Below are positions 31,722 through 38,476 of a DNA stretch of 64,000 nt, piece by piece. This stretch comes from Ignavibacteriota bacterium (lineage in GTDB: Bacteria > Bacteroidota > Ignavibacteria > UBA10030). Position 1 is the first letter of the stretch; the number at the start of each line of letters is the position of its first letter. The notes beneath the pieces were generated by a model. That model was not told the origin of the DNA, made no database searches, and was given only the letters and a program-made list of their open reading frames with translations. Where the stretch lies: contig OY969585.1 in assembly GCA_963701295.1 (NCBI GenBank), positions 1,312,001 through 1,376,000 of the forward strand. Reading direction: 5' to 3'. Position numbers and translations under genes: made by a program.

Positions 31722-33932
31722 ATGCAGAAACCTAAGCATTTAAGAATAAATCATTTCATAATCATCATATTAGCAAGTGTGTTACTTCCTTGTCTCGTTT
31801 CTGGGCAGACCGTGGATGATTGTCTTGCATGTCATTCAGACAATACGTTGACGATAGAGAAGAAGGGAAAAACAATTTCCCTGTTTGCGGATCAATCGAT
31901 ATTAAAAAAATCATCCCATGCAAAACTTATCTGCATTGCCTGCCATGTTAGTTTCGATGCCGGCAATGTTCCCCACAAAGAGAAGATCGATCCGGTCAAT
32001 TGTTTAAACTGTCACAAAGATGCGATCACCAAACATCTTATTCACAGCCCGATATTGGAATCAAAAACAAGCGATTCAGAACTTATCGTTTCATGCAAAC
32101 AATGTCATGGCACGCATAACGTTCAACGCACAAAAATAAGGACTACCGGAATGATATCGGCAGAATCGGTTGATATCTGTGCGACCTGCCATGAACAACA
32201 AGCGCGGCATTATCGCCTTTCGGCACATGGCAAAGCGTCGAACTCTGGAGTTATAGGTGCACCTGTTTGTATGTCGTGCCATCGAAGTCAGATCACAAGA
32301 TTAAAAGATAGTTCCGATTCTGCGAAAGTGAAACTTATGCAGGAAAAGCTTTGTCTCTCATGTCATCTGGATGATCCCAATGTACGTAGGCAGGTTTCGC
32401 CGACGGCAGGTTTTATTGCTGCCTATGAAAAAAGTGTCCATGGCTCTGAGCTATTGAAAGGAAATGCTTCCGCCGCGAATTGTATCAATTGTCATAGCAG
32501 CCATGAAATTGAGAAGGGAAAAGAGTCAACGTCACTTGTAAATCGCAATCACATTCCGGAGACATGCGGTACTTGTCATGCTTCCATAGGGCACGAGTAT
32601 CGGGAAAGTATTCATGGAACCGCATCGATCAAGGGCAATAAAGAAGCACCTGTGTGTACGGATTGCCATGGTGAACATAATATTCTTTCGCCATCAAATC
32701 CGAATTCTCCTGTTTCAGCACGCAATGTTTCTGCTCAGGTCTGTGCGCCATGTCACAGTTCAGTCACATTAATGGAAAAATTTGGACTTGCCGGGGATCG
32801 ATTTAAAACATTTTCATCCAGTTTCCATGGTCTAGCAACGAGTTCTGGGAGTACAGAAGTTGCAAATTGTGCAAGTTGTCACGGAGTGCATAACATCAAA
32901 CCATCCAGCGATTCCACTTCTTTGGTTCATAAATCCAAGCTTGCAACAACCTGTGGTAAATGTCACCCTGGAGCGAATGAACGATTTACTGTAGGTTCCA
33001 TTCATTCCTCAAATACAGACAAAAATGAAGAACCTGTACTCTATTGGGTGTCATTGCTCTATGTTCTTCTTATTGCATCGATCATCGGCGTGATGACATT
33101 GCACAACCTTCTCGACTTCTATCGAAAATCAAAACGAAGGTTGATGATCAGGCGTGGATTAGTAGCCGAGGAACACTATGGACACACATTATATGTACGT
33201 ATGACTTTGAATGAACGCATTCAGCATATTTTACTCATGCTCAGTTTCTTTACGCTTGTTTTTACGGGTTTTATGCTCCGGTATCCAGAGGCATTTTGGG
33301 TTGTCGCAATCAGAAATCTGAACACAAACGTTTTCGATATGCGCGGCATCATACATCGGATTTCTGCAGCAGTGATGGTAACGGCAAGCTTGTATCATCT
33401 TTATTATATTATTTTTGTGCCGCGCGGGAAACAATTGATTCGTGACTTGTTGCCGGTTAGGAATGATATTATTGATGCGATTTCTGTACTGAAGTACAAT
33501 CTTGGCTTTTCACCGATCAAACCAAAATTTGACAGGTTCAATTACATCGAGAAGAGTGAATATTGGGCGCTGGTATGGGGAACCGTTGTGATGAGTGTAA
33601 CTGGTGTCATTCTATGGTTCGATAACACATTTATGGGATTATTTACAAAGCTTGGTTGGGATGTCGCTCGTGCGGTACATTTCTATGAAGCATGGTTAGC
33701 CTTCCTTGCTATCATTATCTGGCATATATATTTTGTCATTTTTAATCCGGATATTTATCCAATGAATCTTGCTTGGCTCAAAGGTTCGTTAACAGAATCG
33801 GAAATGGCAGAAGAACACGCGAAGGAGCTTGCTACATTAAAGCGCGCAGCGCTGGAAGAGGAGAGGAAAATGATATCCGTAATTGTTGATGAAGAAGATG
33901 CAGCGAACACATCAGAGGAGAAGTCCATATAA
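31722..33932 (+). CDS. CbcL-like fusion: 13-heme c domain plus membrane di-heme b (FdnI/HydC-type) domain
   Basis: Signal peptide, 13 CxxCH motifs counted, then TM region with ERIQH, IIHR, YHLYY, FNYIEKSEYWA, VHFYEA, WHIY. Confidence 0.88.
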   Translation: MQKPKHLRINHFIIIILASVLLPCLVSGQTVDDCLACHSDNTLTIEKKGKTISLFADQSILKKSSHAKLICIACHVSFDAGNVPHKEKIDPVNCLNCHKDAITKHLIHSPILESKTSDSELIVSCKQCHGTHNVQRTKIRTTGMISAESVDICATCHEQQARHYRLSAHGKASNSGVIGAPVCMSCHRSQITRLKDSSDSAKVKLMQEKLCLSCHLDDPNVRRQVSPTAGFIAAYEKSVHGSELLKGNASAANCINCHSSHEIEKGKESTSLVNRNHIPETCGTCHASIGHEYRESIHGTASIKGNKEAPVCTDCHGEHNILSPSNPNSPVSARNVSAQVCAPCHSSVTLMEKFGLAGDRFKTFSSSFHGLATSSGSTEVANCASCHGVHNIKPSSDSTSLVHKSKLATTCGKCHPGANERFTVGSIHSSNTDKNEEPVLYWVSLLYVLLIASIIGVMTLHNLLDFYRKSKRRLMIRRGLVAEEHYGHTLYVRMTLNERIQHILLMLSFFTLVFTGFMLRYPEAFWVVAIRNLNTNVFDMRGIIHRISAAVMVTASLYHLYYIIFVPRGKQLIRDLLPVRNDIIDAISVLKYNLGFSPIKPKFDRFNYIEKSEYWALVWGTVVMSVTGVILWFDNTFMGLFTKLGWDVARAVHFYEAWLAFLAIIIWHIYFVIFNPDIYPMNLAWLKGSLTESEMAEEHAKELATLKRAALEEERKMISVIVDEEDAANTSEEKSI

Positions 33933-33970
33933 CACAGGTATGATTACGATTAAGGCCGAAGAAATCTTGC

Positions 33971-35934: not shown

Positions 35935-37004
35935 AAACATTCCTACAACGAATTTACTCATGGATTGACGAGCGAGTTGAGATTCAGGGACTCGTGGAAT
36001 ATATGGGAAAAAAATATGTTCCTGTACATCGCCATTCAATTTGGTACTATTTTGGAGGAGTATCACTCTTCCTCTTTATTATACAGGTTGTCACAGGCAT
36101 CCTTTTGCTTCTCTATTACAAAAGCGGAGAAGAACTTGCATTCGAAAGCATTAACTTTATCATGTCAAAGGTGCAATTCGGCTGGCTCATTCGGTCGATC
36201 CATAGCTGGACTGCAAACTTATTTATTCTCTCGGCGATGATTCATATGTTCAGTGTGTTTTTTGAAAAAGCCTACCGAAAGCCACGCGAAATTACATGGG
36301 TAACAGGTATGTTTATGTTCTTCCTTGCGCTTGGATTCGGATTCAGCGGGTATCTTCTTCCATGGAATGAACTCGCATTTTTTGCTACAAAGGTCGGAAC
36401 AGACATCGCAGGTGTTGTTCCAATTATTGGCAAGCCGTTGATGATCTTCCTTCGAGGCGGAGAAGAGGTGACCGGGGCAACACTTTCACGGTTCTTTGGT
36501 TTCCACGTCGCTGTGCTTCCGGGACTCTTCACAGTGTTTCTCGGTGTTCATCTTCTTCTGGTTCAACGACAAGGAATGAGTGAACCATTGGATATCAAAA
36601 AAGAAACTGAACAAAAGACGATGCCTTTCTTTCCGAATTTCATTTTACGTGATCTCACTCTCTGGCTCCTTGTTCTCAATCTTCTCGCTATTCTTGCAGT
36701 ATTTTTTCCATGGGAATTGGGCAAGAAAGCTGATGCATTTGCACCTGCACCTGCCGGAATAAAACCAGAATGGTACTTCCTCTATATGTTTCAGACATTG
36801 AAATATATCCCAGGCAAATTATTGTTTTTGGATGGCGAAATCCTGGGTATCCTTCTCTTTGGAATTGCAGGACTTTTGTGGACGGTGGTGCCGTTTTGGG
36901 ATCGCAAGAGTTCGCGGGGAGAACAGAATCGTTTTGTGAATTATATTGGACTCTTCGCTATCGTATACATTATCATTTTCACGATCATTGGATGGCTCGC
37001 ATGA
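35931..37004 (+). CDS. Cytochrome b of a Rieske/cytochrome b complex (b6 plus subunit IV-type fusion)
   Basis: [35 protein letters not shown] overlap with the Rieske gene. Confidence 0.93.
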
Positions 37005-38476
37005 AACAGAGAATTATTCTTTTTGCCACAACTCTAATAGCTGTCCTTGTTTCAAGAGAATGTGTTCTTGCAAACGACAAGTGTCTTGAGTGCCATCGAA
37101 ATACAGAGGACAAACCTTCAGCATTATTTTTAAATGATATTCATTATACCAAGGGAATTACATGTGCCGGGTGCCATGGAGGCAATCCCAACACTGAAGA
37201 GATGGAACGAGCAATGGACAAAAAGGTCGGTTTCATCGGAGCGCCGAAAGGAGACGATATCTCCAAGATATGTGCTGCATGCCATTCTTCTCCTGAAAAG
37301 ATGAAATCGGTTGGTTCGTCTCTTCCAACAAATCAGTGGGAGATATTGCAGACGAGTGTCCACGCAAAGCTTTCACTAAAAGGAAAAGAACACATTACGC
37401 AGTGTGTTACTTGCCACAATTCACATGGAATTGTCTCCGTCAAAGATCCATCTTCGCCTGTGTATCCTCTGAATGTTGTCAAAACGTGTGTGAAGTGCCA
37501 TGCAAATATAACAATGATAAAATCCTATAATACATCTCTTCCAGTTGATCAATTGGAAAAATATCGAACGAGTGTTCATGGTATACTCAATGCAAAGGGG
37601 GATCCTAAGACTGCTGAATGTGCAAGTTGCCATGGAAGTCATGACATCCGATCTGCAAAGGATGTGAAATCAAAAGTATATGCTTCAAACCTTCCGGGAA
37701 CATGTGCAACCTGTCATAGCAACGCTGAATATATGAAGGCGTATAAAATTCCTACAAATCAATACGAAAAATATGCAAGGAGCATTCATGGTGTTGCATT
37801 ACTTCAAAAGCATGACGCAGGAGCTCCAGCATGCAACAATTGTCATGGAAATCATGGTGCAGTACCTCCGGGTGTAGAATCGGTCTCAAAAGTGTGCGGC
37901 ACATGTCATGCACTCAATGCTGATCTTTTTTCATCAAGTCCTCATAAGAAAGCGTTTGATCAGCGCAAGCTCCCTGAGTGCGAAACATGCCACAGCAATC
38001 ATGAAATTATAGCTGCGACCGATAAATTATTAGGTGTTACACCAGAGGCTATTTGCAGCAAGTGTCACAATGAAACTCAAAACGTCAAAGGGTATCAAGT
38101 GGCAAAAAAAATGCGTGGATTGATAGATAGTTTAGAAGCAGCTGAGAGAAGGGATCAAGAATTGGTCTATGAAGCTGAACAGAAAGGAATGGAAATCAGC
38201 GAGGCGAAGTTCAGGCTCCGGGATGTTCGACAAGCTCGGCTTCAATCTCGAACAGCGGTTCATGCTTTTAGCGAAGAGAAATTCGCCGAAGTTATTAGTA
38301 ATGGCTTAAAAACAGCTGCTTCAATTGTAGTGGAATCCGAAAGTGCAATCCGTGAATATTATTTTCGAAGAATTGGATTGGCTGTCTTGACAAGTATTAT
38401 CACAATCCTGGCAATATCATTATTCTTATATATCAAGCAGCTTGAGAATAAACAAGGTAAAAATAAGAAAAATTGA
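37001..38476 (+). CDS. 11-heme cytochrome c with C-terminal membrane anchor
   Basis: Signal peptide from ATG 37001 (overlaps the cytb stop), 11 CxxCH counted, coiled region, C-terminal [25 protein letters not shown]. Confidence 0.9.

Follow-up and report, generated by a model that had tools for sequence, protein, structure and literature searches.

A five-gene operon combining a CbcL paralog, an ImcH and a Rieske/cytochrome b module upstream of a putative porin-cytochrome unit in an Ignavibacteriota genome

To our knowledge, the potential-dependent use of ImcH, CbcL and CbcBA in Geobacter is the only worked-out respiratory gearbox for extracellular acceptors, and none of these enzymes is thought to run a Q-cycle. 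In Geobacter, ImcH is needed for acceptors above -0.1 V. Homologs of ImcH and CbcL in Ignavibacteria are already in print (PMC6295460), as are porin-cytochrome (Pcc) genes in bog-lake Ignavibacteriaceae (PMC6344600) and a Caldithrix Rieske/cytochrome b cluster with multihemes (PMC5317091). We analyzed a stretch of 64,000 nucleotides (nt) from an Ignavibacteriota bacterium (GenBank assembly GCA_963701295.1, contig OY969585.1; hereafter the window), in which five co-directional genes, A to E, place a CbcL paralog, an ImcH and a Rieske/cytochrome b module in a single operon upstream of a predicted porin-cytochrome unit.

An earlier reading, made from the letters of the window and hereafter called the sequence-only reading, had described a tight five-gene operon with gaps of 38 and 14 nt and two ATGA overlaps. 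The coordinates of the open reading frames (ORFs) bear this out: the intergenic gaps in the window are 38, 14, -4 and -4 nt, and the two ATGA overlaps are the C/D and D/E junctions, both inside the C-D-E module. The five genes, with protein lengths in amino acids (aa), and the promoter-like element preceding them are:

Gene A, 31722..33932, + strand: 736 aa; 13 CxxCH motifs and a PF01292 cytochrome b; CbcL paralog
Gene B, 33971..35464, + strand: 497 aa; PF03264 NapC/NirT with one CxxxCH and six CxxCH; ImcH
Gene C, 35479..35934, + strand: 151 aa; PF00355 Rieske 2Fe-2S protein
Gene D, 35931..37004, + strand: 357 aa; PF00033/PF00032 cytochrome b, unsplit and b6-like
Gene E, 37001..38476, + strand: 491 aa; 11 CxxCH motifs and a membrane anchor at the C-terminus; takes the position of cytochrome c1/f
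Sigma-54 type -24/-12 promoter-like element, 31541..31555, + strand: 166 nt before A; putative function

The same gene order, with near-identical gaps, is repeated in loci L001-L004 and L016, and the modules of the operon recur among 80 fetched loci, which are the best 80 of 511 confirmed stretches with homologs of B; the arrangement is therefore not a product of chance. Named relatives of B among these best 80 are Ignavibacteria, Bacteroidota, Gemmatimonadota and Acidobacteriota records. The -24/-12 element is the single match in the window, yet 26 of 100 shuffles also give one. It is identical in L001-L004, and a looser version of the pattern occurs upstream of A in 11 of 55 loci versus 63 of 3000 random stretches, four of the 11 being the close relatives L001-L004. 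The source genome encodes rpoN and 13 full-length sigma-54 activator domains. A sigma-70 scan returned 39 sites versus 39.1 expected, and terminator-like sites in the region number 15 versus 12.8 expected, both at chance level. As to the start of gene A, its ATG is ATA in four close relatives, the frame of which begins about 13 codons upstream, and the stretch at 31686-31724 of the window is 2 nt shorter than in those four.

The "ImcH-like" label given to B by the sequence-only reading can be sharpened. B has three N-terminal helices (15-33, 47-65 and 98-116), a PF03264 domain at 98-187 and NrfH (2j7a_C) as its sole match in the PDB. Its heme motifs, CxxxCH at 130 and CxxCH at 155, 204, 313, 430, 450 and 490, match the GSU3259-type spacing of 132 and 157, 206, 312, 429, 449 and 487. 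A published imcH primer led to six metagenome loci, three of them with ImcH-like proteins, of which L103 encodes a 507-aa Geobacter-type ImcH with the published N-terminus; B is 43% identical to it over 491 aa (E 9e-159). Residues E127/H137/K173/Q179/Y188 of this protein, corresponding to the key residues of the heme-1/quinol site of ImcH (bioRxiv 2023.05.03.539133), align with D125/H135/K171/Q177/Y186 of B. Among 80 homologs of B, H135, K171 and Q177 are invariant, position 125 is D or E, and Y186 is Y in 63. In the tree, the Geobacter-type row nests among 23 full-length homologs of B, where a single outgroup sits on a very long branch and leaves the root unsure. Taking identity, motif spacing, the five key residues and this grouping together, B is a true ImcH.

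The Rieske/cytochrome b module of that reading is likewise present, C matching PF00355 and D matching PF00033/PF00032 with Q-cycle motifs. C carries the Rieske boxes C93/H95/C98 and C111/C113/H114 and a Tat-type anchor (K/R-R-x-F-L at 13-17); the boxes and a G-Y signature are invariant in 42/42 homologs, and the G-Y class of Rieske proteins lies at about 200 mV (PMC4122944). D is most like b6 (best PDB match E 1.8e-61) and keeps all four heme b ligands (H91, H105, H192 and H207) and the Qo motif PEWY at 279-282; H192, H207 and P279-E280-W281 are found in 40 of 40 homologs, and H91 and H105 are invariant in an alignment of 34 rows. The heme ci cysteine of b6f, Bacillus and heliobacteria is missing at position 41, which is F in 39 of 40 homologs and L in one. 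The complex is thus of bc type, b6-like and free of heme ci. The module contains no cytochrome c1/f-type subunit, and E occupies its position; the c subunit varies among Rieske/cytochrome b complexes (PMC3509893). At a strict cut, E is present in 38 of the 40 loci with D, the other two showing a shorter 9-heme E and a contig edge, and C-D-E stand together in all 6 regions holding D out of 12 further regions fetched. Since E adjoins D in nearly all loci, we infer that it binds C-D. We considered and rejected the idea that the Rieske complex runs in reverse to oxidize Fe(II), as with only a bd oxidase downstream this would probably bring no net gain.

Gene A has five membrane helices, one of which links a 13-heme cytochrome c to a diheme cytochrome b of FdnI type. 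The structure model of its membrane domain resembles FdnI (1kqf_C, E 1.4e-4, the sole match below 0.001); a PDB sequence search with A gave no match, and a search with the membrane domain alone returned only close relatives. A keeps the FdnI-type ligands: its candidate heme b histidines H461, H502, H545, H559, H653 and H668 are found in 55 of 55 homologs, and the same pattern is described in bioRxiv 2021.04.15.440034. A-related proteins at the 80 loci fall into two types, the five-helix A-like type and a 19-heme six-helix type, and the heme b histidine pattern is invariant in both. The six-helix type is found in 50 of the 80 loci (fused in 21, split in 29), in most cases placed between A and B; A and B diverge in 10 Gemmatimonadota loci. 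The sixth hydrophobic segment of this type is found neither in A nor in its close homologs, and the type itself is missing from the multiheme census of the source genome. The available text of PMC6295460 gives five exceptions to six membrane helices among 138 CbcL/MtrH/MtoC homologs, and its CbcL table, in the parts available here, gives the six-helix type for Ignavibacteria, Bacteroidetes and Gemmatimonadetes.

These comparisons split the "CbcL-like" label of the sequence-only reading, for the architecture holds and membership in the CbcL clade does not. Identity to Geobacterales CbcL in the membrane domain is 27-28% for A and 41-47% for the six-helix type, the references being four Trichlorobacter/Desulfuromonadaceae proteins, exclusive of GSU0274, with heme spacing equal or nearly equal to that of GSU0274. 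In a rooted tree the five-helix group carries a long stem, where long branches were joined and the root is unsure; because of this joining we rebuilt the tree of 57 membrane domains without an outgroup, and 15 five-helix rows fall on one side of a 100/100 branch. The approximately unbiased (AU) test rejects a grouping of the five-helix rows with six Geobacterales-type rows (p 0.03, one model). Of the CbcL gating residues, F525 corresponds to I665 in A and to L, I, V or F in its homologs, and the region of V205 aligns to a non-matching stretch of A, where the gating residue is not kept. A is accordingly placed outside the six-helix CbcL/MtrH/MtoC clade, so its assignment as the low-potential CbcL of Geobacter fails; it is a paralog of CbcL in a distinct sister family, and not an ortholog. 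We also dropped the idea that A is a fused CbcBA, since A is one chain that aligns to CbcL, with its ligands within its own cytochrome b domain. Four Ignavibacteria-labeled entries (P0142, P0295, P0300 and P0301) encode a six-helix protein with nine hemes, placed as sister of Geobacterales CbcL in the rooted tree (100/100); this protein is the actual CbcL ortholog of the group and is absent from the source genome.

The cluster extends beyond 38476 into a porin-cytochrome unit, followed by ccmF. The unit consists of:

Gene F, 38710..39225, + strand: tetraheme c554-like periplasmic cytochrome, candidate shuttle
Gene G, 39349..40662, + strand: predicted outer-membrane beta-barrel, porin of the porin-cytochrome unit
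Gene H, 40670..41908, + strand: 14-heme cytochrome c of 412 aa, with the size and heme count of IALB_1838
Gene I, 41918..42793, + strand: lipoprotein-type cytochrome with six CxxCH and one CX4CH
Gene J, 42902..44176, + strand: lipoprotein-type cytochrome with five CxxCH and one CX4CH

The model of G is all-beta with 24 strands (mean pLDDT 86), and its best Foldseek matches are outer-membrane barrels; no Pfam or NCBIfam family matched it. With a beta-barrel gene beside periplasmic multiheme and lipoprotein cytochromes, F-G-H-I-J has the makeup of a Pcc conduit and is predicted to be one.

We searched 301 genomes, drawn evenly from the class, with B, D and the membrane domain of A, and kept 142 full-length matches of B (of 192 genomes matched), 96 matches of D at >=53% identity (of 140) and 127 matches of A at E 5.6e-93 or better (of 183); as diverged matches were dropped, no genome is claimed to be missing A. 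The porin is present in 190 of the 301 genomes and ImcH in 142, and the porin accompanies 91 of the 96 genomes with the D clade and 136 of the 142 with ImcH, these genomes being kin and not independent. Among the 111 porin-less genomes, the D clade is found in 5 and ImcH in 6, a count over kin and not a statistical test. The source genome, 99.3% complete in one contig, gave no match to COX1, NrfD or class I cytochrome c and none to NrfA over the cut-off; it has one weak molybdopterin match, a bd oxidase and the futalosine menaquinone genes. Three of six same-genus genomes also are without COX1 and keep D at 90-95% identity, and D without COX1 is seen in four genomes, all of the source genus. 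Because a heme-copper oxidase, NrfA and class I cytochrome c were not found in a genome of this completeness, the conduit is the likeliest electron sink, also for the Rieske complex. One other multiheme frame was counted outside the cluster, of octaheme type and with its own cytochrome b. At this locus (L082:4901-7638, corresponding to G000:C1 ~562.9-565.7 kb, minus strand), a PF11783 octaheme protein in two frames (423 + 153 aa) is followed by a PF01292 cytochrome b, and further by YeeE/YedE-type sulfur transporter genes and a rhodanese-like gene; it is possibly a tetrathionate/sulfur respiration unit.

The reading that we favor, and consider rather probable, is that three separable modules oxidize menaquinol in parallel and pass the electrons through periplasmic hemes to the downstream porin-cytochrome unit, for extracellular acceptors. 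The sequence-only reading had proposed such a gearbox as one of two branches, and it is plausible in view of the intact ligands, the architectures implying different charge yields and the adjoining conduit; its equation of A with low-potential CbcL falls away. The C-D-E module would run a Q-cycle with about +1 charge per electron and would need a strong acceptor, because its G-Y Rieske protein is predicted to lie near +200 mV. B, as ImcH, would give off both protons and electrons on the periplasmic side, for 0 charges per electron. A would oxidize quinol at the cytoplasmic face via its FdnI-type heme pair at the expense of the membrane potential (-1 charge), a spending that would open weaker acceptors to the electrons. 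If menaquinol is taken to lie near -80 mV and the proton motive force to be ~150-180 mV, with the side of the FdnI quinone site as background, the acceptor ranges would be above ~+100 mV for C-D-E, above ~-100 mV for B and above ~-230 mV for A. The lower two limits match the limits measured for ImcH and CbcL in Geobacter (windows and yields in PMC4251993, bioRxiv 2022.08.31.506072 and bioRxiv 2023.05.03.539133). A single sigma-54 promoter would express all three modules, so that the choice of route would be kinetic or thermodynamic and not transcriptional. In its most specific form, which we offer tentatively as a possibility, a Q-cycle Rieske/cytochrome b complex with an 11-heme wire would be the top gear of extracellular respiration, co-expressed with ImcH and a five-helix sister of CbcL in a host free of heme-copper oxidase, and a +1/0/-1 ladder would be chosen by acceptor potential alone.

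Several points weigh against parallel oxidation toward the conduit. Gating between the routes is the weakest link. A is without the CbcL gating residues, so that the self-inactivation of Geobacter cannot be assumed, and running the low-yield route A ungated would be wasteful. The native reaction of FdnI-type cytochromes b is quinone reduction, which makes the predicted direction of A uncertain. Bis-histidine multihemes usually lie well below +200 mV, and transfer from the Rieske protein to E may be uphill. The presumed transcript contains a gap of 233 nt between E and F, and the octaheme, tetrathionate-reductase-like locus is another possible electron sink. COX1 is found in 291 of the 301 genomes of the class, so that in other members the Rieske complex may have a part in aerobic respiration. 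The D clade is missing from 99 of the 190 porin genomes and is thus not needed for the conduit.

The doubt about the direction of A leads to an account that we regard as unlikely, in which the cluster works as a two-way hub: A would import electrons from low-potential extracellular donors (reduced humics, minerals or partner cells), reduce menaquinone at the cytoplasmic side and build membrane potential as FdnI/HydC do, leaving ImcH and the Rieske complex to export electrons. In its favor are the fold and ligand pattern that A shares with FdnI, its position outside the Geobacter CbcL clade, its lack of the gating residues of that clade and the complete genome G146, where A alone is linked to the porin unit; in addition, the available text of PMC6295460 reports homologs of CbcL/MtrH/MtoC from Fe(III) reducers as well as Fe(II) oxidizers, with no feature that tells direction. 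However, the imported electrons would have no evident terminal sink besides the bd oxidase, and CbcL, the nearest studied homolog, works outward. It is about equally improbable, in our estimate, that the cluster reflects co-regulation only, with heme-costly anaerobic or micro-oxic modules gathered by the heme genes and C-D-E feeding periplasmic or membrane terminal enzymes instead of the conduit, namely heme-copper oxidases in relatives and the octaheme enzyme in the source genome. The prevalence of COX1 in the class, the octaheme/cytochrome b locus (C1:563-566 kb), the hem genes adjoining the cluster and the genomes G146, G281 and G262, in which C-D-E lie far from A, B and the porin, agree with it. 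Yet the complex is kept in the absence of COX1 by the source genome and three of its genus, the source genome gave no class I cytochrome c, the octaheme gene lies in two frames with its own adjoining cytochrome b, and the porin is present in nearly all genomes with the D clade, as counted above.

The other branch of the sequence-only reading, one membrane supercomplex, was considered in an obligate form, with A, B and C-D-E in fixed proportions and heme wiring running directly from module to module. It could draw on the short gaps and the two ATGA overlaps, and on the finding that the modules lie within 15 kb in 31 of the 70 genomes with all three. However, both overlaps are internal to C-D-E, and the direct order of the window is kept in only 7 of the 70; in most of the remaining all-three genomes the modules are split over contigs and their distance cannot be judged. 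In six near-complete genomes of one genus, distances of 140 kb to 4 Mb separate the three modules. In the single-contig genomes G046, G076 and G233, A adjoins B and D gave no match at 1e-60. A full-length ImcH is missing from six genomes of family f23 that have A and D, and in one of these (G170) 17-18-heme NapC-like proteins are found in its place. The six-helix paralog that mostly intervenes between A and B, the divergent A of the Gemmatimonadota loci, and Geobacter, where imcH is monocistronic and ImcH purifies alone as a dimer, count against it as well. As the modules are shuffled, unlinked and singly lost in relatives, the obligate supercomplex is disfavored, and we consider it very improbable; a facultative association is compatible with unlinked genes. 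Separate from this question, several loci carry further modules. L091:1069-17595 (G170) and L094 (G102) hold no ImcH but 17-18-heme NapC-like proteins and more cytochrome b/c pairs before the Rieske module and porin unit. In L012, L013, L014, L027, L031, L033, L051, L054, L056, L061 and L097, ImcH and the Rieske module have near them an insertion made up of an 8-heme cytochrome and another ~2 kb of genes, which in L097 read as NrfC/NrfD-like; it appears to be a fourth quinol-reactive module in relatives. Near the Rieske module of G281 lies a 740-aa ORF with 28 CxxCH (L095:15511-17733).

The remaining features downstream of the conduit are:

Terminator-like hairpin, 44223..44247, + strand: after J; 10 pairs, 7 of them G-C; a consensus match only
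ccmF heme lyase, 44357..46604, + strand: two overlapping frames of 461 + 305 aa
Heme biosynthesis cluster, 47489..55097, - strand: convergent; protoporphyrinogen oxidase-like gene, ferrochelatase, URO-D, hem genes and a cytochrome c assembly protein

The break in ccmF lies near 45600-45700, where relatives have one ORF of 738-750 aa, and is either real or an assembly error; a real break would disable every c-type cytochrome of the cluster. In the heme biosynthesis cluster we take three genes to be hemD, hemC and hemA from motifs in their translations rather than from a family scan. Upstream of the operon, at 22842-31348, are a gene resembling malic enzyme, four genes forming a 2-oxoacid:ferredoxin oxidoreductase-like set, alanine dehydrogenase and acetyl-CoA hydrolase/transferase, an electron-donor side metabolism adjoining the cluster. 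At 55479-59574, a ferredoxin-like gene lies between two similar ORFs of 145-147 aa, and after these come genes resembling a DUF559 endonuclease and a DNA methyltransferase, and a restriction-type ORF (all named from translations), likely a small inserted island. Elsewhere in the genome (L083:6733-8481, G000:C1 ~2.172 Mb, minus strand), lies a protein of 358 aa, its N-terminus bearing CxxCH, that presumably resembles Cyc2 by its motif; it precedes a monoheme lipoprotein, and neither is matched by Pfam.

We found no description of the five-gene operon in the literature, the gene-neighborhood figures of PMC6295460 and most subscription papers lying outside this scope, so that an earlier mention is possible. 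The available text of PMC3534657, PMC5492636 and PMC5585712 holds nothing on the operon, and that of two Melioribacter roseus papers does not contain the word Rieske. The arrangement, built of known parts, is new, real and conserved. As a compact, cloneable set with a possible coupling of a Q-cycle enzyme to an outer-membrane conduit, it allows extracellular respiration of higher proton yield to be tested by complementing Geobacter mutants. The closest named relatives are fen and peat records, a setting in which humic and iron respiration compete with methanogenesis. For annotation, naming the five-helix paralog CbcL imports a potential window that its sequence does not support.

Compared with known systems, the downstream unit is similar to the pcc genes IALB_1840-1837 of Ignavibacterium album (PMC4245776), where a periplasmic cytochrome, a porin, a 14-heme protein of ~400 aa and an outer-membrane cytochrome with an atypical motif correspond to F-G-H-I; the match is one of architecture, not of alignment, and the available text of that paper mentions no upstream quinol oxidases. 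A shares with CbcL (GSU0274) and the CbcL/MtrH/MtoC family (PMC6295460, PMC9129911 and bioRxiv 2022.08.31.506072) the periplasmic multihemes, one helix and FdnI-type diheme cytochrome b with the same histidines, but has 13 hemes, five helices and a soluble tail, whereas CbcL has nine hemes and six helices. CbcBA of G. sulfurreducens (GSU0593-0594; bioRxiv 2021.04.15.440034), compared with A by description rather than by alignment with CbcB, is similar in its one plus four helices in total and its sigma-54 control, but is made of two proteins, CbcA supplying the fourth heme b ligand, and reportedly has no sequence homology to CbcL. B resembles ImcH (GSU3259) of Geobacter sulfurreducens (PMC4251993, bioRxiv 2023.05.03.539133 and PMC6295460) in its three N-terminal helices and its CxxxCH plus six CxxCH, but differs from it in having D in place of E127 and in being the second of five genes, beside two other quinol-reactive modules. 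As for C-D-E, the Geobacter ExtMNOPQS system (PMC5877670) likewise places a Rieske protein and a b6-like cytochrome b beside 12- and 10-heme cytochromes and a porin-like gene, without cytochrome c1, and the seven-helix "green branch" Rieske/cytochrome b complexes (PMC3509893 and PMC4122944), compared alongside it, also pair a Rieske protein with a b6-like cytochrome b. By comparison, D is in one piece, carries PEWY without a heme ci cysteine and, at 206 bits, stays under the ExtP family cut-off of 290, and C-D-E has one C-terminally anchored 11-heme subunit and shares its operon with ImcH.

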